From a virus: 55,105 bases of DNA. The DNA is taken from UHGV virus genome UHGV-0308106, one strand, 5' to 3'. Under the pieces are notes generated by a model. It saw only the letters and a program-made list of their open reading frames with translations. It was not told where the DNA came from and did no database searches. The position numbers and the translations under genes were made by a program. Numbering within the stretch: the stretch's first letter is position 1; the number at the start of each line of letters is the position of its first letter. This document shows, piece after piece, positions 15,130 to 48,893 of the stretch.

Positions 15130-15266
15130 CATTTGAATCCTGTTTTTCCGATCACCTCCGCGTTCGCTGGCAGCGGCTTCGCTTATACCACTTTCCCGGC
15201 TCTGTGCTAACGGACTACCGGATACTGAAGAATTACGTGAAAACTTATGCTGGAGAAGCGCTATGA
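15126..15266 (+). CDS. ylcG: YlcG-like small protein
   Basis: Hand-translated 46 aa: [50 protein letters not shown] overlaps at both ends. Confidence 0.6.
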
Positions 15267-16045
15267 ACCTTGAAAACACAGTGAAATACCACTTCGCTAA
15301 ATCCACACTGATTAGCGATTCTCCGCGCGCTACCGCCTCCGATTCACTGACCGGTACCGACATAATGGCTGCCATGGGCATGACGCAGGAACGCGCCGCA
15401 ATGGGTTACAGCGCCTTCCTCGGCAAGATGGGCATAAGCAATAACGACCGGGATCGGGCGATCGGTCTGCTGGCTGAGTACGCGATGACAAAATGCGACA
15501 AGGTTGCCGCACTGCGTAAGCTCGGTGCCGCGGTTAAACCTCAGGTGATGCACCAGTTGGCCACCTTCGCTTTTGAGGACTATTCCCGCAGCGCTGCCAG
15601 CGTGAAGCAGTGCGATTGTTGTGACGGTCAGGGCTTCATTGAGGCTGACGTGTTTACCAATAAATTCCGTAAGCCAGAAGGGAAAATGACCGTGTCCGGG
15701 ATGGTGAAGGTCAAAGAATCCATCAAAGTGCTATGCAAAAAGTGTAATGGCTCTGGTGTGGTTAGTGCTTCTTGCAGTGATTGCCATGGGCGCGGCAAGG
15801 CAGTGAACCAGGCTCTTACTGAGAAACAGGGCGTTCCTGTTCTGGCTGACTGTAAGCGCTGCGGAGGGCGTGGGTATGAACGACTTCCGTCGACTGAAGC
15901 CTATGCTGCTGTATGCCAGATTACTGACGCCATTAGCCTGGACACCTGGAAAAAGTCTGTTAAGCCATTCTACGACCTGCTGATCACGAAATTTGATATC
16001 GAAGAGTCCTGGGCCGAAAAACAGCTTAAGCAGATAACGCGGTAA
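15263..16045 (+). CDS. Late antiterminator Q-family protein with four CxxCxGxG zinc-finger repeats
   Basis: Lies after rusA and before the lysis genes. Zinc-finger repeats: CDCCDGQG, CKKCNGSG, CSDCHGRG, CKRCGGRG. Confidence 0.8.
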   Translation: MNLENTVKYHFAKSTLISDSPRATASDSLTGTDIMAAMGMTQERAAMGYSAFLGKMGISNNDRDRAIGLLAEYAMTKCDKVAALRKLGAAVKPQVMHQLATFAFEDYSRSAASVKQCDCCDGQGFIEADVFTNKFRKPEGKMTVSGMVKVKESIKVLCKKCNGSGVVSASCSDCHGRGKAVNQALTEKQGVPVLADCKRCGGRGYERLPSTEAYAAVCQITDAISLDTWKKSVKPFYDLLITKFDIEESWAEKQLKQITR

Positions 16046-19875: not shown

Positions 19876-20349
19876 ATGGCTGCATTAAAACCTGATGTGA
19901 AAGCCTTCATCATTCAGTCGCTTGCGTGCTATGACACGCCGACGCAGGTGGTTGAGGCTGTCCAAAAAGAATTCGGGATCAAGATCACCCGCCAGCAGGC
20001 TGAATCTCACGACCCCACGAAGGCCAGCGGTAAGACGCTCGCCAAAAAGTGGATCGAGATGTTCCACGCTACGCGCGAACGGTTCCTGACCGAAACCAGC
20101 GACATTCCGATCGCGAACAAATCCTATCGCCTCCGCGTGCTTGACCGCATGGCAACCAAAACCGAGGGGATGAAAAACTTCTCCCTGACGGCGCAGCTGA
20201 TTGAACAGGCCGCGAAAGAGGTTGGCGACGCTTACACCAATAAGCTGAAGGTTGAAAGCACTGGCAAGGATGGCGGCCCGATCAAGACCGAGACGACCAA
20301 CCTCACCGCAGATCAGGCCGCAGAGATTTACCGCAAGATGATGGGGTGA
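19876..20349 (+). CDS. terS: Terminase small subunit (DUF2280-type), helper copy
   Basis: Lies before TerL. Has a paralog at 37662-38135. Confidence 0.75.
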   Translation: MAALKPDVKAFIIQSLACYDTPTQVVEAVQKEFGIKITRQQAESHDPTKASGKTLAKKWIEMFHATRERFLTETSDIPIANKSYRLRVLDRMATKTEGMKNFSLTAQLIEQAAKEVGDAYTNKLKVESTGKDGGPIKTETTNLTADQAAEIYRKMMG

Positions 20350-24386: not shown

Positions 24387-25619
24387 ATGAAATATTTTTT
24401 CAATACCCGGCTGGGGGAAACCCGCTATCAGCTGGCTGACGGCTCGCTGTTGTGTAAAGACGTGCCGATAGGTCGAACGGGTAAGCAGCTCTACGGCGCT
24501 GCCGATCTGCCAAACCTCAAACCCGACAAGCTCGGTGAGATAGTCGTAACGCGTTCTCCTGAGCAGGTATTCCATCCGGCCACGCTCGCCTCATTCGAAG
24601 GGATGAGCATCACGATCCTGCATCCTGAAGATGAAAACGGGAATGTGCGGCTGGTAAATCCCGAGAACTGGAAAGAGCTTGCGGTCGGGCATTTTCAGAA
24701 CGTTCGGCGCGGGACTGGTGACCAGTCTGATTTGATGCTGGCAGACCTTATCGTCAAAGACGAAAGCGCCATTCAGCTTATCGAAGATGGTCTGCGCGAA
24801 GTGTCGTGCGGCTATGACGCGGAGTACGAGCAGACCGAGCCAGGTAAAGCCGAGCAGGTCGATATTACCGGAAACCATGTGGCTCTTGTCCCTAAAGGCA
24901 GAGCCGGAAATCGTTGTGCAATTGGAGACAGAGACACAATGGCAAATCAAAAGAAAAGCTGGTGGACCCGCATGCGCACGGCCATCAAAACGGGTGACGC
25001 TGACACCATGAACGAACTGCTGGACTCTGCGCCAGCGGCGGTAACGGGTGACGAAGGGGATCTGCCGAGCGGCGTTAACCTCAACATTAACCTTTCACCG
25101 CAGCAACCATTGCCGGACAAAAAGCCGGAAATGGGCGGAGATCCAACCGGCGACGGCGAGGACGATATCAAAACCTTGCTCAAAGCCCTGCTGGCTAAGC
25201 TCGAAGGAACTGCGACGGGCGATAACGACAATAAGCCTGACGAAAAAGACAAAAAAGATCCGACCGGCGACGGCGAGGACGACGAAGAGGAAACCACGAT
25301 TACCGGTGACTCTGCCTATCGTGCCGAGGTTATCGTCCCGGGTATCGATCTGAGCCGTAAGGTGAAACCGACCGCGTTCAAACGTGATGTGCTGGCTGCC
25401 GCTGACAAAACACTGGTTCGCCAGGTTGTCGGTGATGCGGATATCCGCAAATTGCCCAAGCAATCGGTAGATATGGCGTTTAACGCCGTGTCAGAGATTG
25501 CCAAAGGGCGAAACACCCGCAGCACCACGGGCGATGCACAACGTCCAAATATGGGCATGACCAGCATCGCTTCCCTGAACAAACAAAACGCCGACTTCTG
25601 GTCTAACCGCAAAGGATAA
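24387..25619 (+). CDS. Scaffold protein (DUF2213-type)
   Basis: N-terminal domain, acidic DPTGDGEDD repeats, and a C-terminus reading TTGDAQRPNMGMTSIASLNKQNADFWSNRKG. Confidence 0.8.
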   Translation: MKYFFNTRLGETRYQLADGSLLCKDVPIGRTGKQLYGAADLPNLKPDKLGEIVVTRSPEQVFHPATLASFEGMSITILHPEDENGNVRLVNPENWKELAVGHFQNVRRGTGDQSDLMLADLIVKDESAIQLIEDGLREVSCGYDAEYEQTEPGKAEQVDITGNHVALVPKGRAGNRCAIGDRDTMANQKKSWWTRMRTAIKTGDADTMNELLDSAPAAVTGDEGDLPSGVNLNINLSPQQPLPDKKPEMGGDPTGDGEDDIKTLLKALLAKLEGTATGDNDNKPDEKDKKDPTGDGEDDEEETTITGDSAYRAEVIVPGIDLSRKVKPTAFKRDVLAAADKTLVRQVVGDADIRKLPKQSVDMAFNAVSEIAKGRNTRSTTGDAQRPNMGMTSIASLNKQNADFWSNRKG

Positions 25620-25627
25620 TCCAATGA

Positions 25628-25648
25628 CTGCATATCTGTACCTTATGC
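25628..25648. repeat. Candidate attL of the satellite
   Basis: CTGCATATCTGTACCTTATGC compared with 38350-38370 TTGCATTCCTGTACCGGATGC: 16 of 21 nt match, with a shared CTGTACC core. Confidence 0.55.
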
Positions 25649-25833
25649 AACTAATATCTATTAATCAGTGCGTTATCGTTCGGAATCATACTGCGTTACT
25701 GGCCTGAACCATAAAAATGACACTCCGAACATGTGCGGATTTATTCGCCGGATTTCGCTTTGATTCGGTACGTGAGGGACTAGAGCGAGAATCATGCGCC
25801 GTTTGCATTACATGGTAGCCAGAGAGGTGTTGA

Positions 25834-27063
25834 ATGATTGTTAGGCCACTAACTAACGTCGAAGTGAAAAGCGCGAAGGCACAGGGCAAGGATTTCAGTT
25901 TGCACGATGGTTTCGGTTTGTTGCTTTACATCACAAGCCGGGGCGGTAAGTCATGGCGTTTTCGGTATGTACACCCGGTAACGAAGAAGAGACAAACCTA
26001 TACCATTGGAAGATACCCGGAGTTTACTTTGTCCGAAGCGAGGGAGGAACGTTCGAAACTGCGCCGTATGGTAGCGCGGGGGATAGATCCGAACGAAGTC
26101 AAAAAAGATACCAGGAATGAACAGCGTAAAATGTACGCGCAGTCATTTCAGGCCGTTGCCGATGAATGGCTAAAAATCAAGATTAAAGAAGGTGCGAGAA
26201 GCAACACGCTTGAATCGCACAATGTGACGTTGAAGCATCTTTCCACGATTTTTAGGCATACCACAGTACATAAAATAAACGCAGCCGATACTATTCAGGC
26301 TTTTAAACCTTTCAGGGAAAGGCCATCAACGCTTACGAAAATGGTTATTACCATCAACGCCATAATGGATTATGCGGTAAATATTGGGGTTATTGAGCAC
26401 AACCCACTATCGAAAATTGGTAAAGCATTCCCGGCTGAAAAAAACGAACCAAGAGCGACTTTACAGAAAGAGCGGTTGCCAGAATTTTTAAGCGCATGGA
26501 ACGAGTTGAGCTTATGGGAGCCATCAAAGCTGGCATTATTATTTCAGATCATTACGATGGTCCGACCTTCGGAAGCTGGCGGCGCTCTCTGGAATGAGAT
26601 TGATTTTGATAATTCAATCTGGCAAATCCCTGCAAGCCGGATGAAAGGAAAGCGCCCCCACGTAGTCCCATTATCGAGCCAGGCTATAAACGTGCTTAAA
26701 GAGGCCGAAAAGTGGAAGCGCTGCGATTATGTTTTCCCCTCATGGCGAAAAGAAAATAAGCCGATCTCACGATGTGCGACTCAGGCCGGAATACACAAAA
26801 CGTCGTTTAAAGGAATGATTGTTCCTCATGGGTTCAGGGCGTTGGCATCTACAGTTTTAAATGACGAGGGGTTCAACCCTGATGTGATTGAGGCTGCACT
26901 CGCTCACAAAAGCGCCGATGCGATTCGAAATGTTTATAACCGTAGCGACTATCTGGAAAAACGCCGGGTTTTAATGCAATGGTGGGGGGACTTTATCGAG
27001 GCCGCAGAGCGTGGAGAGATACTGGAGACCAGCGGCGATAAGGGCTTAAGGCTGGTTGTGTAG
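25834..27063 (+). CDS. int: Satellite tyrosine integrase, P4-type
   Basis: LHDGFGLLLYITSRGGKSWRFRY..., HGFRALAST, LAHKSADAIRNVY. Confidence 0.9.
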   Translation: MIVRPLTNVEVKSAKAQGKDFSLHDGFGLLLYITSRGGKSWRFRYVHPVTKKRQTYTIGRYPEFTLSEAREERSKLRRMVARGIDPNEVKKDTRNEQRKMYAQSFQAVADEWLKIKIKEGARSNTLESHNVTLKHLSTIFRHTTVHKINAADTIQAFKPFRERPSTLTKMVITINAIMDYAVNIGVIEHNPLSKIGKAFPAEKNEPRATLQKERLPEFLSAWNELSLWEPSKLALLFQIITMVRPSEAGGALWNEIDFDNSIWQIPASRMKGKRPHVVPLSSQAINVLKEAEKWKRCDYVFPSWRKENKPISRCATQAGIHKTSFKGMIVPHGFRALASTVLNDEGFNPDVIEAALAHKSADAIRNVYNRSDYLEKRRVLMQWWGDFIEAAERGEILETSGDKGLRLVV

Positions 27064-27104
27064 GGCATATCCATTTTTGGATAATTATGATTTCAAACGG
27101 GAAT

Positions 27105-27130
27105 AGCTGGCTTTAAGCCAGCTTTTTTTA
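27105..27130 (+). terminator. Rho-independent terminator after the satellite int
   Basis: AGCTGGCTT-t-AAGCCAGCT followed by a T-run. Confidence 0.8.
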
Positions 27131-27206
27131 TGCCCAAAGCTAACCGGAATGCGTTTTTTTTTATTCAAATCATATATAATCATATCGAATATATACGGAG
27201 GTTTTT

Positions 27207-27419
27207 ATGTCTATAAGTGGCGGTGATATTCTGCTAAAAGGTGAAGTGAAAGCGCGTTTACGTTATCGCTCAGACTCGTCATTCTACGAGTTTCTAAAAG
27301 ACGAGAAAAACGGCTTTCCAATGCCTTTTAAAGTCGGTGGGCGTAACTGCTGGTATGAAGATGAAGTAGATGCCTGGATAAGTAAACAAAGCGAGAAGCG
27401 CGGGATCTGCACATCATGA
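27207..27419 (+). CDS. alpA: AlpA-family regulator/excisionase-like protein
   Basis: LLKGEVKARL..FPMPFKVGGRNCWYEDEVDAWI. Confidence 0.8.
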   Translation: MSISGGDILLKGEVKARLRYRSDSSFYEFLKDEKNGFPMPFKVGGRNCWYEDEVDAWISKQSEKRGICTS

Positions 27420-27440
27420 ATGTTTGCAGATTTGGGAAAG

Positions 27441-27477
27441 AGGGCTTGCTAACGGCTATCCGGGCAAGCCCTTTTTA
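27441..27477. terminator. Bidirectional terminator
   Basis: AGGGCTTGC...GCAAGCCCT followed by TTTTT. Confidence 0.75.
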
Positions 27478-27558
27478 TTGTCAGTGGTGGGGATCTGTAA
27501 CTTACGGCCACCAGCGCCGGTAATCACCTTCTGGCTGGTGGCTTCACTGGCATGGCTA

Positions 27559-27918
27559 TTACGCTGCCGCATCATCTGAATTGAATTCAATGTGAATTCG
27601 GTCATAAGGCAGCACGATTTTTTCGCCGTCTTTGTCCAGAACGCCGCCGTTAAGCAGTGACTGAACATCGTTATAAACACCGCGAAAATCACGGTTAACA
27701 ATGCGTGATAGTTCGCGGATTGATACGGCTTGCGCTCCCTCCATCGCTTTGATGATCTGCCAGCGGTTAGGGGCAAGCATAGTTTTAGCCAGTTGTTCTA
27801 CAGTGGGAAAAATCAGTTCGGAACCGATGAAATCCCCGTTCATTGCGCGGGAGGCGTCGGACATTGCCACCCGGAAAGCATCATCAACGGTCATTACTCT
27901 GACGGTCAGCACTCGCAT
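27559..27918 (-). CDS. wHTH DNA-binding protein, putative antitoxin (TumA-like)
   Basis: ..RWQIIKAMEGAQAVSIRELSRIVNRDFRGVYNDVQSL.. GGAGG ribosome-binding site. Starts 4 nt after the upstream gene. Confidence 0.7.
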   Translation of the reverse strand: MRVLTVRVMTVDDAFRVAMSDASRAMNGDFIGSELIFPTVEQLAKTMLAPNRWQIIKAMEGAQAVSIRELSRIVNRDFRGVYNDVQSLLNGGVLDKDGEKIVLPYDRIHIEFNSDDAAA

Positions 27919-27922
27919 GGTA

Positions 27923-28204
27923 TTACCTCCTCAACAGGTTTATGTCAGCCTGAAAGCTGGCGATCAGGTTCTCAATGGTGGTGAATGTCACCGGATATTC
28001 CCGATCATGGATGTGTTTGTGGTCGCCTTTGCCACGTTCGTTGTCGTAACGCATGACGCACTCGCCATCTACGATGTAGGCCAGACTGTACTTGTATTGG
28101 TGCTGGCTACCTAAAATTGCCGGGTCTACTTCCAGAATGCGGATCGAGGCGAAAGCGTTATCAGCTATCTGGATACGGCGGTTCATCAACTCAACAGCGG
28201 GCAT
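27923..28204 (-). CDS. DUF6516/TumE-like putative toxin
   Basis: YKYSLAYIVDGECVMRYDNERGKGDHKHI motif, recognised from memory. AAGGAG ribosome-binding site. Confidence 0.6.
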   Translation of the reverse strand: MPAVELMNRRIQIADNAFASIRILEVDPAILGSQHQYKYSLAYIVDGECVMRYDNERGKGDHKHIHDREYPVTFTTIENLIASFQADINLLRR

Positions 28205-28220
28205 TGGCTTATCTCCTTGT

Positions 28221-28270
28221 TGATGTAAATAATAACATCACAAACGAATGATGTAAATGATTACATCATT
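28221..28270. promoter_or_regulatory. Two palindromic operators upstream of the TA-like operon
   Basis: TGATGTAAATAATAACATCA (28221-28240) and AATGATGTAAATGATTACATCATT (28247-28270). Confidence 0.55.
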
Positions 28271-28679
28271 GCGGGTAAGTTACCGATGGCATGAACGGTT
28301 CGCTGCTGGTGGCTCTCGATCTCCTGAAAGCTCAGGATATTGCCGGGCATGATTTTAATCGGCGGACTTTTCGGCCGATTGAATACGGGCAGTTCGCTCC
28401 CTGTGTATCGGCTTCGTTTCTGGATGATTCGCGTTTCGTTTCTGGTGAATTCGCATTCGCAATTTGTCCGCGAAGCCTTATCAGGCCTGATTTGAGCGGT
28501 GCTCTCTCTTTGCGAATTCGCAGTTCCATTTCGCACTTTGATTCGCAGTTTTCAAATGTTCCCATTCCGGGGACACGGACGATTAGACAGGTGTTACAAA
28601 CGTTGGTGGTGAAATATCTTCTTGCGCTGGCGGGCACGGTGTGGTTATGATTATTTCGCACCTCACAAAACGGGTGCCG

Positions 28680-28905
28680 GGCGTGAGAACCCGGATAAGG
28701 TCAAAGGCGACAACAGACGCCTATCGCGTCTTTTTTTTGTCGCAATGTCAGTACCCCCATATGTAGCGGCGCAGATCCGCGCACAGAATCAATGGTGGCT
28801 CTGGCAGGGCAGCTTTCGGGCTGGCCGGTTCCCTTTGACGCCGGTATTCTCACCCCTGTCAGTGTCACCACCCTTTAGAGCGTGAGAACTCAGGTGGTGG
28901 CTCCT
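28680..28905 (+). ncRNA. Candidate c4/CI-like antisense-RNA immunity region upstream of the icd-like gene
   Basis: TTCTCAC (28847-28853) and CACCACC (28866-28872) are complementary to GTGAGAA (28882-28888) and GGTGGTG (28893-28899), which lie just 5' of the icd ribosome-binding site. GCGTGAGAAC occurs twice (28681 and 28880). A terminator hairpin plus T8 lies at 28716-28738. Confidence 0.3.
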
Positions 28906-28931
28906 TAAATTAGTCAAAGGAGATCATCATC

Positions 28932-29129
28932 ATGATGACTATCCCTACCCTCGCTCAAACAAAATTCACCTGGCGCTTTCTCGCGCTGAATCGCCACGAT
29001 AAAAAAGCCAAACCTTGCCGTCTGTCCGTTGAGGCTGCGACCGAACGCGAAGCCCGCCGCATCCTTGCGCCGCACTTTATTTTGTCTCTGGCCGCACGTC
29101 TGCCAGTGCCGGAGGTGCGTCATGTTTAA
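28932..29129 (+). CDS. Icd-like cell-division inhibitor family protein
   Basis: FLALNRHDKKAKPCRLSVEAATEREARRILAPHFILSLAARLPV. AAGGAG ribosome-binding site. Confidence 0.65.
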   Translation: MMTIPTLAQTKFTWRFLALNRHDKKAKPCRLSVEAATEREARRILAPHFILSLAARLPVPEVRHV

Positions 29130-30000
29130 CCTCCAGACACTGACAGCTAAAGCCCGTGAGCTGCGCGGCAACGTCGTTAAAGCGGCGAGCACAAAGGGAA
29201 GTCGCACCATGACTCCTGTCTATGACCGTGACGAGCAGCGCAAGCTACGCGAGCGCATCCAGCAGACACAGCCCGATTGGGTGTTGCTCTGGTGGGATAT
29301 TGCGACCGTAACCGGCTGGCGTACCAGCGACGTTTGCAACCTGCGCTATTCCTGCGTCAATTGGGAAACGGGGCAGGCGACAATTATCGTTGCCAAGCAG
29401 ACCAAAGCCGCCGAAGCGCGGGCAACCCGCAAAGGTATTGAAATTGTGCGCCAGCAGCGCAAGGACGCCGCGCGGCTCGCCGCTGACCATATCGCCTACA
29501 TGAAGTGGGATAGTATCGGTTGTGACGAACTGGCCGCCGATATGAACGACGAGGAACAGGCGATTGTGTTCGGGCTGGTGGCAAAGGCTGACGTCAAGCA
29601 CGACACCAAACAGTTACCGCCCGGCATTATCAAGCGGCTGCGTGACCGTCAGGATCGGAATCTGGTGGAGGACGACCTGGTATTTTCACGCTCTCAAATC
29701 GAAAGTAACCGTTGTCAACGTCTGGAAGGTAGCGTTACTCGCCAAACCATCTGGCGCAAACTTCATGGCGTCATGGCGTGGTTTACCCGTTTCATTAACG
29801 CTAAATTGCGCCTGAGCGCGTACTCAAGCCGAAAAATAGCAGCCTTTAATCTTATGTCCGCAGGTGGCGAACAGGGATTATTGGTGGCTTCTGAAATGCT
29901 GGGGCATAGCAACCCGGCGATAACTCGCACTTACCTTCAATTAGGCAGCAAAGCCGCCGCTATCCAGTCCCGTTTAGCAATGGAGGTGTGCCATGCGTAA
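29122..30000 (+). CDS. Tyrosine-recombinase-fold protein (atypical)
   Basis: TGWRTSD (R), YSSRK in place of HxxR, and LGHSNPAITRTYLQ (H..Y). GGAGGTG ribosome-binding site. Confidence 0.6.
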   Translation: MFNLQTLTAKARELRGNVVKAASTKGSRTMTPVYDRDEQRKLRERIQQTQPDWVLLWWDIATVTGWRTSDVCNLRYSCVNWETGQATIIVAKQTKAAEARATRKGIEIVRQQRKDAARLAADHIAYMKWDSIGCDELAADMNDEEQAIVFGLVAKADVKHDTKQLPPGIIKRLRDRQDRNLVEDDLVFSRSQIESNRCQRLEGSVTRQTIWRKLHGVMAWFTRFINAKLRLSAYSSRKIAAFNLMSAGGEQGLLVASEMLGHSNPAITRTYLQLGSKAAAIQSRLAMEVCHA

Positions 30001-30172
30001 TCTCTTTCATATCACTGGCTACGCCGTCAATAAACGCGGCCTGACAGTCGGTTTTAGCTATCTCATCGACGCCGAGGACGCCATGCAGGCAAAAGTTAAT
30101 GCCATTGCTGAGGCGAAAGACGATGAACTCACCCACGTATCTATTGCCCGTATTCTGGAGGTGGCAGCATGA
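29993..30172 (+). CDS. Hypothetical 59-aa protein
   Basis: Hand-translated, beginning MRNLFHITGYAVNKRG. GGAGG ribosome-binding site. ATGA overlap with the next gene. Confidence 0.55.
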   Translation: MRNLFHITGYAVNKRGLTVGFSYLIDAEDAMQAKVNAIAEAKDDELTHVSIARILEVAA

Positions 30173-30381
30173 GCAAAGTATCCCTGGCCGATTCAACCTG
30201 CCGTATCCAACAGGCGCAGGAAGTCCTGTCTCTCTGGCTTGAGGCGACGAATAAAAACGATAGCGGCACGGCTAAATTAATCGGCGCAATCATTTCCCTT
30301 CTGGATGGTATCCCCGAATTGATGGATTCAGTAGAGGATGAATTGGCTGGCATGGACTTAAAAGCGATGGATAAAGCATGA
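30169..30381 (+). CDS. Hypothetical 70-aa protein
   Basis: Translationally coupled ORF. Confidence 0.6.
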   Translation: MSKVSLADSTCRIQQAQEVLSLWLEATNKNDSGTAKLIGAIISLLDGIPELMDSVEDELAGMDLKAMDKA

Positions 30382-31004
30382 GCAACGTAGAGAAATTCAC
30401 ACCGGGAAATGCCGACTTATTACACGCCGAAGCCACACCGCACGGCGTAAACATCATGACCCGCAATGATGCCGGGATGTATGAGCATGTAGCCATTATC
30501 ACCTATGAGAGCGCTGTAAGCCGTCTGGATGCGGGAGAGTACGACGATACGCCAGATATCGGCTACGCCATTCATTTTGCCGTTGCTGATGGCGGGGCGC
30601 GTGGCTGGTTCGACTTTACCGCGCAGCATGAAGTAACCATGTGGCGCTGGCTGATTGCTGCGACGTTCGTTTCTGAGATGAAGCGCGAAAACGGCACAAC
30701 CTCCGTCACGGAGGCTGACGGCACAACATCGCAGGTGGCGATTTACTCCAATGGTAATGCGGGCATGGTGATTTACCCGTTTGCTGAACGGCTGGCGATG
30801 GCGAACAACATCGAGGGCGCAATGATTGAGCGATACGGCGTCGAACAGGGTACGGAAAAAGCCATTGTGTTTTATCAGGCCATGCTGGATACGGAGCGCG
30901 GCGAGCTTACCCCGTTCGGACGTGAAACGCTGGCAGAGCTACACGATCACTTCATTGCTGATCTGGATGAAAACGGCTGGCCTGAAATGCCAGCGGCGCA
31001 CTGA
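30378..31004 (+). CDS. Hypothetical 208-aa protein
   Basis: Coupled ORF upstream of the primase gene. Confidence 0.65.
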   Translation: MSNVEKFTPGNADLLHAEATPHGVNIMTRNDAGMYEHVAIITYESAVSRLDAGEYDDTPDIGYAIHFAVADGGARGWFDFTAQHEVTMWRWLIAATFVSEMKRENGTTSVTEADGTTSQVAIYSNGNAGMVIYPFAERLAMANNIEGAMIERYGVEQGTEKAIVFYQAMLDTERGELTPFGRETLAELHDHFIADLDENGWPEMPAAH

Positions 31005-31016
31005 GGGAGCGACACA

Positions 31017-33797
31017 ATGCGTAATATCGACCTTATCCGCGAAGTGACCAGCGCCGCAGCAGGGCGCTGGCCTTATGTGCTGGCTGGGTTGTCTATCGAC
31101 GTGCCTGATTCATCGCGCCGCCATTCTCCATGCCCTGCATGTGGTGGAAAAGACCGTTTCAGATTCGACGACAACGGGCGCGGTAGCTTTATCTGCAACC
31201 AGTGTGGCGCTGGTGACGGGCTGGATTTAATCAAGCGGGTTAACAACTGCGACACTACGGAGGCGGCACAGCTTGCCGCTGACGTGCTGGGTATTGATTA
31301 CCGGGCAGCGCAATCCGACCCGGTGGCAGCGAGCCATATAAGGGAGCAACTGGAAGCTGACCGCCAGCAGCGTGAGCAGGAGCGCCAGAAACAGGCAGCA
31401 GGGGACGCAGAGCAGCGAAGGGCTACGTTTGCCCGTCTGTATGCCGGAATGCGCCAGAGTGCCACACAGGGCGAATCTGATTACCTGCAATCAAAAGGGC
31501 TGACCGGGTTTAACTATCCGGTTATGCCTGATGGTTCGTTATTGCTGGAGCTGGTGGACGAATCCGGCGCAGTGGCAGCAGCGCAAACCATTACACCGCA
31601 GGGAGAGAAGCGACTCCTGACAGGTTCAGCAAAGCGCGGGGCATATCACGCCGTAAACGCGCCAGAATCGCCGCAGAGCGTTTTAATTGCCGAGGGGCTG
31701 GCGACGGCCCTTTCAGTTCACCTGATGCGCCCGGACGCGCTGGCAGTGGCAGCAATTGACGCGGGCAACCTGCTACCCGTTGCCGAAGTGATGCGCCGGA
31801 AGTACCCACAGGCACAAATCATCATTGCCGCAGATAACGACCAGATGGGCGAAAGTGACGGAATTAAAGGAGTGAAAGTTAACACTGGCAAGGAGGCCGC
31901 AGAGAAAGCCGCGAAAGCCGTTTCTGGCTGGGTTTCCATGCCACCAGTGGACTATAAAGCGGACTGGAACGACTACCACCAGCAATACGGCCTCGAAGCG
32001 GCCACAGCAGCATTTAACGACTCAATGTATCAACCGGAGGGTAAGAAAGTGGGTGCGACACTGACAGCTATCGACGGCGGCAAGAAAAAACTTGGTATCG
32101 ACGACGATCTGAAACCGCGAGTAGAGAGCCGTGCGGATGGCATTCACTGGATCACCCCGAAAGTGGACAAAGACACAGGAGAAATTATCAATACCGAGGC
32201 GTGGCTATGCTCTCCGCTGGAGATTGCTGGTGCGGGGAGTGATAACGCCAGACAGCGCTTTCTGATCCTGCGTTGGGACGTCCCCGGCAACCGGGGGCAA
32301 GTTACCCGTGCGCTTCCATGGGAGGACATTGGCGACCGTGAGGGATGGCGCACGCTGAAAAACGGCGGTGTCAGTGTGACAACCAAACCATCGTTGCGGG
32401 CAATTCTGGCCGACTGGCTGCAGCGAACTGGTAGCGGCAAGGAATGGCAGATCAGCCACACCACAGGCTGGCACAACGGGGCGTACATCATGCCGGATGG
32501 TGATGTTATTGGTGAGCCAGAGATACCGCTGTTATTCAGTGGTCGGAGTGCGGCGGCTGGTGGCTATACCGTCAGTGGAACGCCGGAAAGCTGGCGTGAT
32601 TCGGTGGCGCGTCTTGCGCTGGGAAACCCGTCAATGATGCTGGGCGTTGCTGCTGCGCTTTCTGCGCCGCTGATCGGGCTTGTTGGCGCTGACGGGTTCG
32701 GCGTGCATCTTTTCGAGCAGTCCAGCGCAGGGAAGACAACCACCGCCAACATTGCCAGCAGTTTATACGGTGAACCGGATGCCTTGCGCCTTACCTGGTA
32801 CGGTACAGCGCTGGGTATCGCCAACGAAGCGGAAGCGCATAACGACAGCCTGTTACCGCTGGATGAAGTGGGGCAGGGCAGTAGCGCCAAAGACGTTGCT
32901 ACGTCTGCTTACACGCTGTTTAACGGTGCCGGAAAGCTACAGGGGGCCAAGGAGGGCGGCAACCGTGAGTTAAAGCGCTGGCGCACCGTGGCGATCAGTA
33001 CCGGGGAAATGGACATTGAGACGTTTCTTTCTGCTGGTGGGCTGAAAGTTAAGGCCGGGCAACTGGTGCGATTGCTTAATTTACCGATGGAGAAATCAGT
33101 AACGCACCATGAGTACCAGAACGGGAAGCAACACGCCGACGCACTCAAAGAGGCTTACCAGACGAACCACGGAGCCGCAGGCCGTGAATGGATTAAATGG
33201 CTTGCAGGCCACCAGCAGGAGGCAAAACAAGCTGTCAGGGCGGCGCAAGAGCGCTGGCGCAGTCTTATCCCCGCTGATTATGGCGAACAGGTTCATCGTG
33301 TCGGTGAGCGGTTCGCCATTCTGGAGGCGGCGCTGGTGCTGGGGATGCCTGTCACTGGTTGGGGGGAGCAGGAAAGTCGGGACGCTATCCAGCATGGCTT
33401 TAATGCTTGGGTAAAAGAGTTTGGCACGGGGAACCGTGAGCATAAGCAGATCATCGAGCAGGCAGAGGCGTTTCTTAATGCCTACGGCATGAGCCGTTTC
33501 GCGCCGTTCCCGTATAGCCCGGCTGACATGCCGATCCGGGATTTAGCCGGATACCGTCAGAAAGGTGAGCATGACGAAAGCCCCGTAGTGTTCTACACCT
33601 TTCCGGCTGCGTTCGAAAAGGAGATAGCGCAGGGCTTTAATGCGAAACAGTTTGCCCGTGTGCTGGCCGGGGCTGGGGTACTGAAACCGCCAGCCAGCGG
33701 AAGGGGATATCAGCGTAAATCCCCGCGAATTGATGGACGCCAGATAAACGTTTATGTGCTCCAGCTACGACCCGACGAGATAGAGGGCGAAGAATAA
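31017..33797 (+). CDS. Primase-helicase (P4 alpha-like): zinc ribbon, Toprim and P-loop helicase
   Basis: CPACGGKDRFRFDD..CNQCG; LIAEGLATALS..AADND; Walker A SSAGKTT. Confidence 0.9.
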   Translation: MRNIDLIREVTSAAAGRWPYVLAGLSIDVPDSSRRHSPCPACGGKDRFRFDDNGRGSFICNQCGAGDGLDLIKRVNNCDTTEAAQLAADVLGIDYRAAQSDPVAASHIREQLEADRQQREQERQKQAAGDAEQRRATFARLYAGMRQSATQGESDYLQSKGLTGFNYPVMPDGSLLLELVDESGAVAAAQTITPQGEKRLLTGSAKRGAYHAVNAPESPQSVLIAEGLATALSVHLMRPDALAVAAIDAGNLLPVAEVMRRKYPQAQIIIAADNDQMGESDGIKGVKVNTGKEAAEKAAKAVSGWVSMPPVDYKADWNDYHQQYGLEAATAAFNDSMYQPEGKKVGATLTAIDGGKKKLGIDDDLKPRVESRADGIHWITPKVDKDTGEIINTEAWLCSPLEIAGAGSDNARQRFLILRWDVPGNRGQVTRALPWEDIGDREGWRTLKNGGVSVTTKPSLRAILADWLQRTGSGKEWQISHTTGWHNGAYIMPDGDVIGEPEIPLLFSGRSAAAGGYTVSGTPESWRDSVARLALGNPSMMLGVAAALSAPLIGLVGADGFGVHLFEQSSAGKTTTANIASSLYGEPDALRLTWYGTALGIANEAEAHNDSLLPLDEVGQGSSAKDVATSAYTLFNGAGKLQGAKEGGNRELKRWRTVAISTGEMDIETFLSAGGLKVKAGQLVRLLNLPMEKSVTHHEYQNGKQHADALKEAYQTNHGAAGREWIKWLAGHQQEAKQAVRAAQERWRSLIPADYGEQVHRVGERFAILEAALVLGMPVTGWGEQESRDAIQHGFNAWVKEFGTGNREHKQIIEQAEAFLNAYGMSRFAPFPYSPADMPIRDLAGYRQKGEHDESPVVFYTFPAAFEKEIAQGFNAKQFARVLAGAGVLKPPASGRGYQRKSPRIDGRQINVYVLQLRPDEIEGEE

Positions 33798-33821
33798 AAC
33801 ACACATACGAGATGTTTTTTT

Positions 33822-34114
33822 GTTGGTTCAGTTGGTTCAGTAACTATTTAATTAAGATAAGTATATGTATTTAATATATTTCTATACCCATAAGTGAACC
33901 AACACTGAACCAACAAATACCCATTTTGAACCAACAAATGCCGCTATTGAACCAACGCCCTTTTCTGGCTGGCCTGTAAATCTTTCCCACTGAACCAACA
34001 CGAAAATAGCGTTTGTTGGTTCAAAACAAGGCTTTGTTGGTTCACTCCTCAAGAAATAATCCTTACAAAACAACAATCTTTACAAATTGAACCAACTGAA
34101 CCAACTGAACCAAC
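33822..34114. repeat. Satellite replication origin: 12 copies of TGAACCAAC plus an AT-rich tract
   Basis: Forward copies at 33895, 33906, 33927, 33948, 33991, 34088, 34097 and 34106. Inverted copies at 33822, 33831, 34015 and 34036. AT-rich tract at 33841-33890. Confidence 0.8.
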
Positions 34115-34221
34115 ATGTTTTTGTTTATCTATAGAGTTTTTTCGGAGAGTAATTACGAATTTGGAGGGGCATCGCCTAAGCGACAGTATGCGGAAACGGC
34201 AACTTTGCGGAGCGGAAAAGA

Positions 34222-34252
34222 AAAAGCCCGCGCTGGAGAGGCGAGGGCTTTT
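34222..34252 (+). terminator. Rho-independent terminator
   Basis: AAAGCCC...GGGCTTT followed by a T-rich tail. Confidence 0.6.
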
Positions 34253-34397
34253 GTTAACCATGTTTATGCAATCACACAATGGTGGATCACCGTCATAGTA
34301 CCACGTCGATTTATCATTTCAATGTACGCAATGATGTTTACTAATATTGCAATTTATGCAATGATCAGAATTTAAACAACGCAAAAGGTTATGAACA

Positions 34398-34961
34398 ATG
34401 AAACAGATAACCAATGTTAATCTGGAAAGTGATAACGCTGGTGGTACAGTCGAGGTGACTTACTCCGATGATACGTTCGAAAGGCTGACCTGTTCGCTGC
34501 CTGTGGCTCTCGTCATTGCGAACCTTGCAACGACGCTTAAGCAGGAACGTGCAACACGCATTGCAACCGGCGACCGCCTGCGCCGGATGTATACCCGCGA
34601 TAGTGACATGATTACCCGCAGCGGCAGCGGCGCTTCTACGACCTCCACCGCGCCAACGTCAATGGACGCTGAATTTATGCGCCTGGTACGCGCTGTAGCA
34701 CCAAAGTATGACAACGCCCTTCCTGATACCGATCCTCGCCTTGTTGCGCTTGATGTGCTGCGTTACGCACCCGCTGAGGCATTCAGTGCGGTACACCCGA
34801 CCCCGCTATCAGAGATTCAGCTTGATCAGGCTATCGACGTTCTGGAACAGGTTGGCGACTACATGCGAGTTAACAACGTTTCACCGAAGATTCTCACCAC
34901 AGGCGACGCCATTCGCAGCATTAACACCGACAACGCCAGTTTCTGGCATCGCACGAAGTAA
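34398..34961 (+). CDS. Satellite protein ending in a helper-scaffold-like tail (candidate alternative scaffold / capsid-size redirector)
   Basis: The C-terminus TTGDAIRSINTDNASFWHRTK parallels the helper scaffold TTGDAQRP..SLNKQNADFWSNRKG. Confidence 0.7.
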   Translation: MKQITNVNLESDNAGGTVEVTYSDDTFERLTCSLPVALVIANLATTLKQERATRIATGDRLRRMYTRDSDMITRSGSGASTTSTAPTSMDAEFMRLVRAVAPKYDNALPDTDPRLVALDVLRYAPAEAFSAVHPTPLSEIQLDQAIDVLEQVGDYMRVNNVSPKILTTGDAIRSINTDNASFWHRTK

Positions 34962-34973
34962 GGAGCAATGAGC

Positions 34974-35162
34974 ATGGCTATTTATGACCCGAAATTAGCA
35001 GCAGGAAACCCGCAAAGCGCCGGGCGTAAACTCTTTGGCCGTGAACAGGCCGAGCAATTGCGGATGCGTAACAACTTCAACAACGAATGCCGCAATCTGG
35101 AAAAAGTCAACGAAGCGAATGCAAAGTTCTGGAGTGAACAGGATGAAAAAGCCAAACGTTAA
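34974..35162 (+). CDS. Small protein carrying a second scaffold-tail-like motif
   Basis: ..LEKVNEANAKFWSEQDEKAKR. An AAGGAG lies 9 nt before the ATG at 34974. Confidence 0.55.
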   Translation: MAIYDPKLAAGNPQSAGRKLFGREQAEQLRMRNNFNNECRNLEKVNEANAKFWSEQDEKAKR

Positions 35163-35310
35163 GCCGGTATTACTCTCTGGCGACCAGTTCGCCGCAATCT
35201 GCAAGATCCAGGAGCGCGAACGCCAGCGCTCCGATATTGGCGTAGCGCCGTCTGTCCATCAAATTGCCCGTGGGCTGGTGGCGAAAGCGCTGGCATCAAT
35301 TCAGGAATAA
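35143..35310 (+). CDS. Hypothetical 55-aa protein, possibly a small DNA-binding protein
   Basis: MKKPNVKPVLLSGDQFAAICKIQERER..SVHQIARGLVAKAL. The RHH-like reading is speculative. Confidence 0.45.
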   Translation: MKKPNVKPVLLSGDQFAAICKIQERERQRSDIGVAPSVHQIARGLVAKALASIQE

Positions 35311-35315
35311 CGACT

Positions 35316-36383
35316 ATGTCATATAACTGGATGCGCCATTTCGAGCTACAGCTCATCGATGAGAATGGCAAAGGAATTAGCCTTAGTGATTTCAAAGTTA
35401 CCTTTGATATAGAGCGTAACGATAACAAATGGCCAGCTGTTGCGACGGTCAAGATCTACAACCTTTCACCAACTACTCAGAACCGTATTATGCAACGTGA
35501 GTTTGCCAAAATTGTGTTGATAGCGGGGTATGATGGTCGTGCGCAGGATGTAAGGGCAAGTGATGTGGGGATTGCACGTGAAATATCAGCAAGCGAAGTG
35601 GGCCAGGCTAACGGCGCAAACTACGGAGTCATTTTCAGCGGTGATATCCGCTTCACTGTGACCGGAAAAGATAACCCTGTCGATTCATGGGTACAGGTGC
35701 AGGCTTGTGACTCTGTGGAGGCGTTTACCAGCGCATTTATCAACACCACTATCAGCAAAGGCTACACCACAGAAGATATTTATGTTGAGCTTATGAAAAG
35801 GCTGGAACCTTACGGCATTTCTCGCGGTATTGTTCCTGAATTCCCGGCAACGGTATTTCCTCGCGGTCGAGCCCTCTTTGGCTATGTCCATAACTATCTC
35901 GATGAAGTGGCCGCGCAGTGCAAAGCCACTTGGCAATTCAACTATGGAAAAGTCGATATTGTTCCCAGAGACAAGGCCACTCATGAAGCTGTGGTTCTCA
36001 ACGCTAATACCGGGCTTATCGGTATGCCTCAGCAGACCATCGGTGCGGGTGTGAATGTCAAATGCCTGATTAACTCACGGATTCACCTGAACGGGCTTAT
36101 CCAACTGGATCAGGCTTCGGTATATCGTAGCGCCTTATCTGCGGATCAAATTGCCCAAGCTGGTGGGCCAATTTCGGTGGAAAGCCAAAACGGAAACCTT
36201 GTCACTACTGGATTAACGCAGAGTCCGGCGAGCATTGCTACCGATGGTATCTATAAGGTTCGGTATATCAGTTACACGGGCGACACGCGCGGTCAAGCGT
36301 GGTATATGGATCTGGCGTGTGAGGCTCGCGGGAATTCTGATTTATTTTCAAGTTCATTTATGAATAAGCAGAGTGAAGAATGA
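35316..36383 (+). CDS. Baseplate hub protein, satellite paralog of 47472-48536
   Basis: Colinear over its full length with the helper protein (MSYNWMRHFELQL.. against MSLNWMRHFELQL..). Roughly 60% identical by eye. Confidence 0.8.
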   Translation: MSYNWMRHFELQLIDENGKGISLSDFKVTFDIERNDNKWPAVATVKIYNLSPTTQNRIMQREFAKIVLIAGYDGRAQDVRASDVGIAREISASEVGQANGANYGVIFSGDIRFTVTGKDNPVDSWVQVQACDSVEAFTSAFINTTISKGYTTEDIYVELMKRLEPYGISRGIVPEFPATVFPRGRALFGYVHNYLDEVAAQCKATWQFNYGKVDIVPRDKATHEAVVLNANTGLIGMPQQTIGAGVNVKCLINSRIHLNGLIQLDQASVYRSALSADQIAQAGGPISVESQNGNLVTTGLTQSPASIATDGIYKVRYISYTGDTRGQAWYMDLACEARGNSDLFSSSFMNKQSEE

Positions 36384-36724
36384 AGAAGATTATTTTACTG
36401 ATTGGTTTATTGGGCGCATCTGGAAGTCATGCTGCGCAGGTTATTACCATGCAGTGCGGAAACTTTCGCTTTGAGATGATAGAAAACTCGATGGCGAGAA
36501 TTAATGGTGAGTATGTAACATCTCAGAAAATTACAGAGTTCGGACAGAACGGGGCAAAAGTAGAAATGACGCTTATGCCTGCCAGCGATGGGAATCTGTA
36601 TGGGTTTGAATACATCCATCCTGACGGTAGCAAAAAGCGCTGGCTGAATGTTGAGCTTATCCGCACCAATATGAATCAGGCGCGGATCATTGGCTCGTTT
36701 GATTGTAAGCGCGTGAAGGGGTAA
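36380..36724 (+). CDS. Secreted small protein, satellite paralog of 48549-48893
   Basis: Signal peptide ending SHA/AQ. Conserved QCGxF near the mature N-terminus and DC(K/R)(R/K)VK at the C-terminus. Confidence 0.7.
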   Translation: MKKIILLIGLLGASGSHAAQVITMQCGNFRFEMIENSMARINGEYVTSQKITEFGQNGAKVEMTLMPASDGNLYGFEYIHPDGSKKRWLNVELIRTNMNQARIIGSFDCKRVKG

Positions 36725-36732
36725 GGGGAATC

Positions 36733-37395
36733 ATGCCATTCATTCGACCCGCAAATGAGCAGGATGTAACACAGCTTGTTCAGGACAATGCTAAAGCATC
36801 TGTAACCAATGCGTTACCTGGCATTATTCGTTCGTTCGATCCCGAAACTGTCACCTGCGATGTTGATATAGCCATTACGGCAAGAATGACGAAGGCTGGC
36901 ACAATGGGTGAAGATTTCCAGTATGAGTCCGTCCGCTATCCGATTCTTAACGATTTGCCTGTGGTTTTTCCGCGCGGGGGCGGAGTTACGCTTACTTTCC
37001 CGGTTAAAGATGGTGATGAATGCCTCATCGTATTCTCTTCGCGTTCGATTGATTTCTGGTGGCAGAACGGCGGTGTGCAGGAGCGAGCTGATGGGCGTAT
37101 TTTAGATCTGTCTGATGCGTTCGTTATTCCTGGCCCCCAATCACAGGTAAAGAAGATATCCAATATCAGTACCAACGCTGCGCAGCTGCGTACAGATGAT
37201 GGAGCGGCATTTGTAGAGGTGTCCGCTGGTGGAGCCATTACTATTACCAGCTCTCAAATCACCCTTAACGGGCCCGTGCAGGTAAACGGAACGATCACTT
37301 CCACTGGCGACCAAACGGCCAACGGTATCAGCCAGATTAACCATACCCACGGCGGCGTACAATCAGGCGGCAGCAACACAGGAAAACCACAATGA
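36733..37395 (+). CDS. Central tail spike (Gp138-N / gpV-like), satellite paralog of 49430-50170
   Basis: PGIIRSFDPETVTC..FPRGGG.TLTFPVK.GDECL..DFWWQ.GGVQ, and an apex reading HTHGGVQSGG. Confidence 0.8.
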   Translation: MPFIRPANEQDVTQLVQDNAKASVTNALPGIIRSFDPETVTCDVDIAITARMTKAGTMGEDFQYESVRYPILNDLPVVFPRGGGVTLTFPVKDGDECLIVFSSRSIDFWWQNGGVQERADGRILDLSDAFVIPGPQSQVKKISNISTNAAQLRTDDGAAFVEVSAGGAITITSSQITLNGPVQVNGTITSTGDQTANGISQINHTHGGVQSGGSNTGKPQ

Positions 37396-37571
37396 GCAAT
37401 ATTGAAAAACTGAAACCAGAAGAAAGCGGATCCAGCCAGAATGGTAAGGTTCGTACCTGGCTGGATGATATCAACGGGCAGCCGGAACCAGATGGTATTG
37501 GCAGCTTCGGTGAGAGTGCGATCTGCGAAGAATCACGCACAGCGGAAACCATGCGAAATAACGTAGGGTGA
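37392..37571 (+). CDS. Hypothetical acidic 59-aa protein
   Basis: Hand-translated, beginning MSNIEKLKPEESGSSQNGKV. ATGA overlap with the spike stop. Confidence 0.45.
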   Translation: MSNIEKLKPEESGSSQNGKVRTWLDDINGQPEPDGIGSFGESAICEESRTAETMRNNVG

Positions 37572-37598
37572 CGGTCAGATGACGTGATCTGTAACTTT

Positions 37599-37640
37599 AA
37601 GTAGCGGTGCAGGGGCAGAACTCAGCACGCTACTTTTATT
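37599..37640 (+). terminator. Hairpin plus T-rich tail before the satellite terS
   Basis: AAGTAGCG...CGCTACTT followed by TTATTTT. Confidence 0.5.
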
Positions 37641-37661
37641 TTCTTTGTCAAAAGGTGAACA

Positions 37662-38135
37662 ATGGCGGCATTACCAACAATGGCTAAGGTTATGATTATT
37701 CAATCATTAGCTTGCTACGAACCCCCTTCCAGAATCGTTGAGCTTGTAAAACAAGATTTTGGCATCGTCGTTACCCGGCAGCAGATATCGGCCTACAACC
37801 CTGAAAATACAATGGCAAAAAATCTTAGCCAAAAATGGGTAGAACTCTTTAATCACACTCGCGCCCGCTTCCAGAGTGAAATATCCGAGATCCCTATCGC
37901 TAACAAAGCGTACCGGCTGCGTATGCTCGATCGCATGGCTAACCGTGCAGAGGCAATCAAGAATTACGCATTAACAGCGCAGCTTATTGAACAGGCCGCG
38001 AAAGAGTGCGGGGACGCTTACACCAACAAATTAAAGGTTGAAACAACGGGTAAAGATGGTGGTCCGATCAGAACGGAAACAACGAACTTAACCGCCGAAG
38101 AAGCCGGGGAGGCATACCGCAAATTTATGGGATAA
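37662..38135 (+). CDS. terS: Terminase small subunit (DUF2280-type), satellite paralog
   Basis: Same length (157 aa) as the helper TerS. The C-terminal half is close to identical (LTAQLIEQAAKE.GDAYTNKLKVE.TGKDGGPI.TETTNLTA) and the N-terminal part is diverged. Confidence 0.8.
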   Translation: MAALPTMAKVMIIQSLACYEPPSRIVELVKQDFGIVVTRQQISAYNPENTMAKNLSQKWVELFNHTRARFQSEISEIPIANKAYRLRMLDRMANRAEAIKNYALTAQLIEQAAKECGDAYTNKLKVETTGKDGGPIRTETTNLTAEEAGEAYRKFMG

Positions 38136-38349
38136 CCACCAGCGCCGTGACACGTCACACGCAAAAATAGCACCGCCCATTAATGGGCTGGTGGCACAGC
38201 TTGCATATTGAAATTCCCTGTAAATCTTACAGATCTGGTATTGAGTAACTTACCCCATTCAGCGCCATACATCACAGAGCAGCCTATGGACTACACACAA
38301 AATCAGGCTGCAAATAAATCCTTATATTTCAGTTGATTAAATAATAGCC

Positions 38350-38370
38350 TTGCATTCCTGTACCGGATGC
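38350..38370. repeat. Candidate attR of the satellite
   Basis: Partner of 25628-25648. It overlaps the resumed reading frame of the cement gene. Confidence 0.55.
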
Positions 38371-48548: not shown

Positions 48549-48893
48549 GTGAGACATTTACTTTGCACTGTTACCGTGTTCGCGGTGCTTATATCAGCAC
48601 CCGCTTTTGCGGATCAGCAATGTGGTGATTTTAAAATCCATTGGGCAGATGATGGCTTAGCCAGAATCAATGGCGCAAAGCCAGAAATGCAAAAAATCAC
48701 CTTCCTGAAAAACAAAGGCGATTATAACAATATCAAGATGGATTGGCGTATGGCTACCGATCAGCCTGGAAGATGGGTTGGTCTTGAGTACATCAATCGA
48801 AACGGCAAAGCCATTCTCAACGCACAGTGGTTGCAAGCCAGCATGGATTCGCCGCGTCAGTATGCAACATACGACTGCCGAAAAGTAAAATAG
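48549..48893 (+). CDS. Secreted small protein, helper copy (GTG start)
   Basis: Signal peptide ending AFA/DQ. Conserved Cys pair. GAGGTGG ribosome-binding site. Confidence 0.7.
   Translation: MRHLLCTVTVFAVLISAPAFADQQCGDFKIHWADDGLARINGAKPEMQKITFLKNKGDYNNIKMDWRMATDQPGRWVGLEYINRNGKAILNAQWLQASMDSPRQYATYDCRKVK

Follow-up and report, generated by a model that had tools for sequence, protein, structure and literature searches.

A predicted phage satellite within the first codons of the cement gene of its helper prophage

Satellites that reside in late genes of their helper prophages (HE-PICIs) were reported in 2023, in a survey that comprised 491 elements at 14 sites, spread over nine late-gene cognates (Tommasini, Mageeney & Williams 2023, NAR Genom Bioinform; PMC10111431). 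According to the published model, the interrupted late gene is expressed only after excision of the satellite; in measurements on the element 11capE, the composite first excised and replicated, and the satellite was excised afterwards (PMC10111431). The survey of HE-PICI integrases used a cut-off of 400 bits to the 11capE Int; the attP of these elements carries a doubled tgTGTATTGCa motif, ~81 bp upstream and ~132 bp downstream of the attP centre, and clade-specific tropism for prophage late genes was proposed (PMC10111431).

The element analyzed here lies in the UHGV virus genome UHGV-0308106 (hereinafter the window, i.e. the whole stretch of 55,105 nucleotides that was analyzed) and resembles HE-PICIs in several respects. 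Comparison with empty sites places it within a late gene of the helper, namely the cement gene (codons 5-7), which is flanked by the scaffold and capsid genes; its link to the helper is apparent from the small terminase (TerS), baseplate hub and spike, with 64%, 63% and 51% identity to the helper genes, respectively; int, alpA and the primase gene are all on the + strand, co-oriented with the interrupted late gene; the attP provides no gene-restoring replacement; and the element consists of four zones, namely int-alpA, immunity RNAs (C4/isrK), primase, and variable captured helper late genes. The logic proposed for it also agrees, with the gene off until excision, and passive replication and late transcription. 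In contrast to the HE-PICI integrases, the satellite Int scores only 69 bits in BLASTP against the 11capE Int of E. coli NRG857c (22% identity), and the gene it targets encodes the cement protein of a SEN34/E217-type head module. The site, at the 5'-end, separates the translation start from the gene body, whereas HE-PICIs split the gene mid-way; the satellite encodes a homologue of TerS, pointing to pac-type redirection, while packaging of 11capE presumably relies on cos; and baseplate genes are present here, compared to capsid genes there. The doubled motif is missing here: not even a single exact TGTATTGC occurs within the satellite, and the reconstructed attP contains just two isolated one-mismatch half-sites, neither doubled nor at the published distances. 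The available parts of the main text and supplements of PMC10111431 contain neither the att sequences nor the names cement, DUF2184, DUF2213 and DUF2280, and no other paper linking a satellite to a cement gene was found in a literature search. Compared with those parts of the source, the helper-embedded lifestyle was already known, and the unrelated integrase and the previously unreported target gene are new.

Three other described systems share individual features with this locus. P4 shares the integrase type (Arm-DNA-bind_3), a large primase-helicase, a C4/CI-type immunity RNA paired with an isrK/seqA-like partner and a length near one third of that of the helper genome, and an Icd-like ORF is present in relatives; however, the integration site of P4 is a chromosomal tRNA-Leu gene and does not lie in its helper, the helper here is not P2-like, and no homologues of Sid, Psu or Delta were detected in Pfam/PHROG scans of the satellite ORFs, several of which received no assignment. 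In pac-type SaPIs (SaPI1, SaPIbov1), the satellite TerS is likewise homologous to that of the helper and presumed to redirect the helper large terminase, whereas these elements are Gram-positive, occupy chromosomal sites, are induced via repressor/antirepressor interactions and have no cis link to the helper. Regulated gene integrity, or active lysogeny (skin in sigK, phi10403S in comK), also involves precise excision that rebuilds an interrupted gene at a defined time; here, however, the interrupted gene belongs to the helper phage, and the satellite, not the host cell, would benefit from the switch.

The helper prophage and the satellite

The helper is a lambdoid, SEN34-like temperate myovirus prophage. 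Its genes encode, among others, an integrase, RecE/RecT, a CI-like repressor, O and P, the Q antiterminator and holin/lysin functions, and the late genes follow the order DUF2280 TerS, large terminase (TerL), portal, MuF-like, DUF2213 scaffold, cement, capsid and an E217-type contractile tail. The Q gene is located upstream of the + strand late operon, which is uninterrupted up to the satellite.

15263-16045, + strand: Q-type late antiterminator (Pfam Antiterm PF03589, E = 2e-45)
19876-20349, + strand: helper small terminase, DUF2280 (Pfam DUF2280, E = 9e-50)
24387-25619, + strand: scaffold/protease-like gene, DUF2213 (PHROG 1961/12864 and Pfam DUF2213), the last helper gene before the insertion
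38861-39802, + strand: major capsid gene (Pfam Major_capside, E = 7e-82), with its own SD sequence AAGGA at -6.1 kcal/mol

Without the satellite, the window amounts to ~42.4 kb, close to the isolated relatives (40.7-43.3 kb), and the 55-kb composite reaches ~130% of the 41-43-kb genomes of these relatives. All satellite and helper late ORFs examined in the window are intact. The following features were assigned within the insert.

25834-27063, + strand: tyrosine integrase with a P4-type arm domain (Pfam Arm-DNA-bind_3, Phage_int_M, Phage_integrase)
27105-27123, + strand: intrinsic terminator after int (8-bp stem followed by a T7 run)
27207-27419, + strand: AlpA-like regulator, candidate excisionase (Pfam Phage_AlpA, 20.5 bits, under the 21-bit cut-off)
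27559-28204, - strand: TumE toxin/HVO_A0114 pair (Pfam TumE, E = 7.5e-16; HVO_A0114, E = 1e-18)
28658-28736, + strand: isrK RNA (Rfam RF01394, 61.3 bits, above the gathering score)
28788-28875, + strand: C4 RNA (Rfam RF01695, 78.8 bits, above the gathering score)
31017-33797, + strand: primase/helicase with Zn-ribbon, Toprim and DUF927 (Pfam and PHROG 1139)
35316-37395, + strand: captured late genes, i.e. baseplate hub, 114-aa protein and gpV-type spike (helper homology)
37662-38135, + strand: small terminase homologue, DUF2280 (64% identical to the helper TerS)

With int, alpA and primase genes in 12.7 kb and no full set of virion genes, the gene content is that of general Gram-negative PICI/P4-like elements, and, judged by this content, the insert is classified as a phage satellite of the Gram-negative PICI/P4 kind, with this type of prophage as its helper. 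Capsid, portal, TerL and cement genes were not found in the satellite by Pfam/PHROG scans and protein queries; in particular, there is no second cement gene, the cement query having matched the examined loci only at the attR gene body. The integrase, co-oriented with the helper late operon, shows to the helper Int the same 22% identity as to the 11capE Int. The AlpA assignment, below threshold in Pfam, coincides with the PGAP name of the identical protein of E. coli ET791 ('AlpA family transcriptional regulator'). The two RNAs, isrK and C4, form a P4-type immunity pair.

The captured late genes are homologous to helper genes at 47472-48536 (hub, 63% amino acid identity), 48549-48893 (114-aa protein, 34%) and 49430-50170 (spike, 51%). 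Between the satellite and helper TerS, identity is 48% over residues 1-60 and 74% over residues 61-157, a pattern that, given the general architecture of small terminases, is consistent with changed DNA specificity and retained contact with the large terminase.

Several other features of the satellite were observed. Tail-tip genes are unusual in a satellite and might alter the tail tip of satellite particles. The TumE/HVO_A0114 pair, located between alpA and the immunity RNAs, is kept in several relatives and is likely to be addiction or defence cargo. A second tyrosine recombinase-like ORF is found at 29029-30000; every relative examined has kept it, with a length of 291-292 aa. Directly 3' of the satellite TerS, at 38136-38200, lies a long hairpin (CCACCAGC...GCTGGTGG, inner GCCCATTAATGGGC) that scores as a terminator on the minus strand only; it would block antisense transcription from the helper side, not + strand read-out into the cement gene.

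The integration site and the start of the cement gene

The features of the two junctions are as follows.

25612-25616 and 25624-25626, + strand: native SD sequence AAGGA and native cement start codon; the annotations of WEM25, CH468, SEN34 and yong1 begin the gene at this ATG
25624-25707, + strand: stub ORF at attL (six native cement codons, 21 satellite codons and a stop)
25636-25642, no strand: attL core CTGTACC, corresponding to cement codons 5-7, from the alignment of attL, attR and five empty sites
25643-38364, + strand: embedded satellite of 12,722 bp, missing from ~335 E. coli genomes and four isolated phages with joined flanks
38358-38364, no strand: attR core CTGTACC, from the same alignment of attL, attR and empty sites; reconstructed attP context TTGCAT-TC-CTGTACC-TT-ATGCAA
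38367-38849, + strand: cement-gene body, open only from the internal Met8 (160 of 167 codons), with no SD; matches XM1_gp53_minor_capsid and Phage_cement

When each flank was compared by megablast to 5426 complete E. coli genomes, 338 proved to carry the left flank and 339 the right; apart from four genomes, those with the flanks (~335) lack the insert, and their matches end at 25642-25648 and resume at 38351-38360. Thus, the breakpoints are real. A single metagenome contig spans the whole satellite at 99.7% identity. A tRNA scan of the window yielded zero tRNA genes, ruling out an att site of the tRNA type.

Uninterrupted relatives (E. coli prophages and phages SEN34, Omnitron, yong1 and 606R2) read AAGGA-N7-ATGACTGCATATCTGTACCGGATGCC or close variants. 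The loci of E. coli WEM25 and CH468 are caaAGGAtaatccaATGACTGCATATCTGTACCGGATGCCTGTTGGC, as are those of SEN34 (a Brunovirus) and Omnitron, and phages yong1 and 606R2 carry close variants of the uninterrupted sequence. The empty sites in WEM25, CH468, SEN34, Omnitron and yong1 are ATGACTGCATATCTGTACCGGATGCCTG, encoding MTAYLYRMPVG, and the scaffold gene directly adjoins the cement gene in the empty-site genomes. In the window, the scaffold-like gene ends with TAA, AAGGA is located 7 nt 5' of the ATG at 25624, and the imperfect direct repeats at 25628-25648 and 38350-38370, identical in 16/21 positions, enclose the CTGTACC core. Starting from the native ATG, the stub ORF at the left junction encodes MTAYLYLMQLISINQCVIVRNHTALLA (27 codons, stop at 25705-25707). 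At the right junction, the cement frame reads stop (TGA)-LNNSLAFLYRMPVGIAG, that is, LNNSLAFLYR and then MPVGIAG.

Most of what the sequence-only reading had claimed for this site is borne out: the two 21-nt repeats with their core at the breakpoints, the ribosome-binding site and ATG of the left junction, the separation of the cement body from the scaffold side by ~12.7 kb, and an intact protein starting with MTA(Y/F)LYRMPVG. The att core, which was to be delimited by aligning empty sites of relatives, comes out as CTGTACC in codons 5-7. A stub of 26 codons had been given, one short of the actual count. The possibility raised in that reading that the true junctions map elsewhere is contradicted by the insert-free E. 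coli genomes.

In the reconstructed attP core, TTGCAT-TC-CTGTACC-TT-ATGCAA, a 6-bp inverted repeat flanks a 7-bp overlap, and the corresponding arrangement in attB is TGCAT-AT-CTGTACC-GG-ATGC; the satellite attB and attP are ATATCTGTACCGGATG and ATTCCTGTACCTTATG, respectively. Two direct copies of CGGATTT (window 25738-25760) are located 95-115 bp to the right of the attP core, and GGATTTAT recurs inverted 47 bp to the left of it (window 38311-38318). These repeats, which differ from the published HE-PICI motif, are candidates for arm-type sites of the integrase.

The product of the interrupted gene is a cement/minor capsid protein by profile, fold and gene position. The matches to the two Pfam profiles reach 109.3 and 80.8 bits (cut-offs of 27), and XM1_gp53_minor_capsid and Phage_cement align from cement residues 1 and 3, respectively; the top Foldseek matches of its model are capsid chains, 7kmx_a (XM1) and 8hdt_G (Pam3); and the gene is located directly 5' of the major capsid gene. 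A sequence search of the intact protein against PDB produced no significant match.

By sequence comparison, the upstream ATG (25624) is the true cement start. It is the start annotated by PGAP and by phage depositors, and its location, 4 nt past the scaffold stop codon, is typical of operon packing. The anti-SD duplex energy is -5.4 kcal/mol at this ATG vs +0.9 kcal/mol at the ATG at 38367, which belongs to the weakest 7% of ATGs in the window and, as the sequence-only reading held, has no SD. An N-terminal extension of 7-11 residues is present in >105 of the best 120 cluster representatives (60-98% identity), and only three of these start with MPVG; the alternative that homologues start at the methionine of MPVGIAG, raised in the same reading, is thus at odds with the comparison. 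The extension follows the pattern x-x-(Y/L/F)-L-(Y/K)-R before MPVGIAG, and, in an alignment of 30 homologues (61-92% identity), R7 and M8 are invariant and L5 is conserved in at least 90%. In phage 606R2 the protein begins with MNNVFLYR, so that FLYR is kept despite different nucleotides and a different start context. Residues 1-15 of the AlphaFold model have pLDDT <50. One database cement protein that starts at MPVG comes from a metagenome assembly containing a frameshift, in which another gene lies upstream and no satellite is recognisable.

In RefSeq, PGAP gives the truncated 160-aa ORF the usual name 'structural cement protein Gp24' and does not mark it as a pseudogene (L098 14269-14751; L099 14182-14664), and the disruption of the gene is therefore invisible in this annotation.

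Distribution and recombination at the site

At the megablast level, the integrase was found in 4/5426 complete E. coli genomes, always at this cement site, and the same holds for every copy detected (at least 98.5% identical) in E. coli, Apirhabdus and metagenomes. No variation was observed in attL among the 11 loci covering it, i.e. the window, E. coli ET791, Apirhabdus (Apirhabdus apintestini) and eight IMG/VR contigs. The exact 160-aa truncated product occurs in 75 blocks of a protein-contig collection, with the satellite upstream in 10/10 of the matches listed. None of the distant integrase relatives (up to 41% identity) in GTDB genomes and IMG/VR adjoins scaffold or cement genes, and the closest integrases in phage records are 38-39% identical to the satellite Int.

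Both partners vary across these loci. Among the satellites, the primase is 80-98% and AlpA 84-100% identical, and the late zone contains TerS only, up to five baseplate genes, or a DUF5681 gene instead; among the helpers, the scaffold is 92-99.8% identical. This variation argues for repeated site-specific events or for long co-residence. The baseplate genes, none to five per relative, include Dit-like and Pam3_gp18 genes (L094; L097 5978-9055). Signs of decay were observed as well, namely IS5 in the satellite of ECONIH5 (L098 12345-13325), the lack of annotated TerS and AlpA in ABWA45 (L099), a split helper dnaB and a KilA-N gene with an internal stop in ET791 (L003 1697-4123 and 9491-9988), and a frameshifted int with a fragmented primase in Apirhabdus (L008 10001-17378).

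A search with the right arm of the satellite and the core identified seven attR junctions and two attP junctions, the latter with the sequence ...CATTCCTGTACC followed by TTATGCAACTAAT (CATTCCTGTACC followed by TTATGCAAC). One attP junction is at the end of the IMG/VR contig IMGVR_UViG_3300045988_113726 (L080), and the other is in OGVK01015064.1 (L085), an independent metagenome contig of 1 kb; it derives from a diverged relative, with similarity confined to the att region. Because the identity at the core extends over only 7 bp, these junctions cannot be assembly chimeras of attL and attR, and hence excised circles or Int-made tandems exist in nature. The contigs point to an element that recombines at this site, although they could reflect tandem copies rather than free circles.

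Late expression and alternative readings

The cement gene is cut off from its ribosome-binding site, ATG and six codons, and the satellite supplies no replacement: attR provides ..LAFLYR in frame, with neither a start codon nor an SD before Met8. Given that the start is at attL, the body is at attR and there is no second cement gene, the full-length gene can form only after precise excision at CTGTACC. The claim of the sequence-only reading that the capsid genes are detached from their translation start holds for cement, and not for the major capsid gene, which keeps its own SD.

Convincing + strand terminators in the satellite number only two, at 27105-27123 and 28715-28731, the latter being the terminator of isrK; in total, 20 terminator-like sites were found vs 16.6 +/- 4.1 expected from shuffled sequences, i.e. 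not above expectation, so that the 'several terminators' previously invoked are an overstatement. Between the satellite TerS and the cement gene, the scan scored no terminator on the + strand, and between attL and int no sigma-70-like promoter; the latter would fit helper late transcription driving int. The lambda Q protein makes RNA polymerase resistant to terminators. With a lambda-type Q available from the helper, late transcription would, by analogy, probably pass the two convincing terminators, so that neither these nor the distance of 12.7 kb need shut off the downstream late genes. The interpretation given in the sequence-only reading was essentially right for cement and overstated for capsid and the downstream genes, considering the SD of the capsid gene and the helper Q.

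Taken as a whole, the junctions are likely to be the attL and attR of a P4/PICI-type satellite that was inserted by its own Int in codons 5-7 of the helper cement gene, such that excision rebuilds the gene. Under the proposed mechanism, the tyrosine integrase of the satellite would have inserted the element in the orientation of the helper late operon. Upon induction, the whole composite would excise and replicate; Q-modified late transcription, having passed the scaffold gene, would enter int and alpA and continue across the rest of the satellite; and Int and AlpA would then excise the satellite, rebuilding the cement gene. The satellite small terminase, with its diverged N-terminal and conserved C-terminal part, would direct the helper large terminase to satellite DNA. 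Headful packaging could not take the whole helper until the satellite leaves, since the composite is ~130% of the genome size of the relatives.

Some truncated cement protein could be made from the invariant Met8, and one alternative is that the site is a near-neutral safe harbour, where enough cement is produced from Met8, Q carries transcription through, and late expression is not meaningfully throttled. This is compatible with the predicted disorder of residues 1-15 in the monomer model, the acceptance of the 160-aa ORF as a normal cement protein by PGAP, the presence of Q and the SD of the capsid gene, but appears unlikely in view of the weak, SD-less ATG at 38367 (+0.9 kcal/mol, weakest 7%), the invariant R7 and highly conserved L5 in the lost segment, and the size of the composite, which would still be ~30% over that of the helper genome; translational coupling at 38367 is unlikely because the nearest upstream in-frame stop is 31 nt away. 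A further alternative, in which the MPVG methionine is the true start and the element occupies an intergenic spacer, disrupting no gene, we regard as highly improbable: gene callers accept the 160-aa ORF opened by the ATG at 38367, and three of the best 120 representatives start there, but the extension is present in >105 of them, L5 and R7 are conserved even where the nucleotides differ, as in 606R2, only the upstream ATG is preceded by an SD, the Pfam alignments begin at residues 1-3, and the spacing of 4 nt from the scaffold stop is that of an operon.

Conceivably, the composites could be a dead end, i.e. defective prophages that are vertically inherited and have no regulated excision cycle. 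Three of the four complete E. coli carriers show signs of decay, the Apirhabdus copy has damaged int and primase genes, and virions were not recovered for the published 11capE/50icd pair (PMC10111431). We consider this doubtful, even more so than adequate cement synthesis from Met8, because attP junctions come from two independent datasets, Int is 98.5-100% conserved with an identical attL while the scaffolds differ by up to 8% and the primases by up to 20%, and the examined satellite and helper late ORFs are intact in the window. Insertion by the satellite's own Int, with the cement gene rebuilt by excision, accordingly remains the preferred reading. A broader proposal, advanced here tentatively and with less than even confidence, is that helper embedding evolved independently at least twice, here with an integrase lineage unrelated to the HE-PICI clade, that the cement initiation region acts as an on/off switch set by excision, and that these satellites, with a small terminase of their own and up to five baseplate/spike genes, may build particles whose tail tip is satellite-specified.

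The locus offers a tidy experimental system: a single small gene is switched through the loss of just its ribosome-binding site, start codon and six codons, phages related to the helper have been isolated (SEN34, Omnitron, 606R2), and carrier strains with complete genomes are available. With the truncated cement ORF called normal by standard annotation, such composites pass as ordinary 55-kb prophages, and the findings suggest that surveys based on integrase similarity would undercount helper-embedded satellites. The element shares the lifestyle of the HE-PICIs without belonging to their clade or carrying their motif, which would mean that helper embedding arose convergently and is not peculiar to one lineage.
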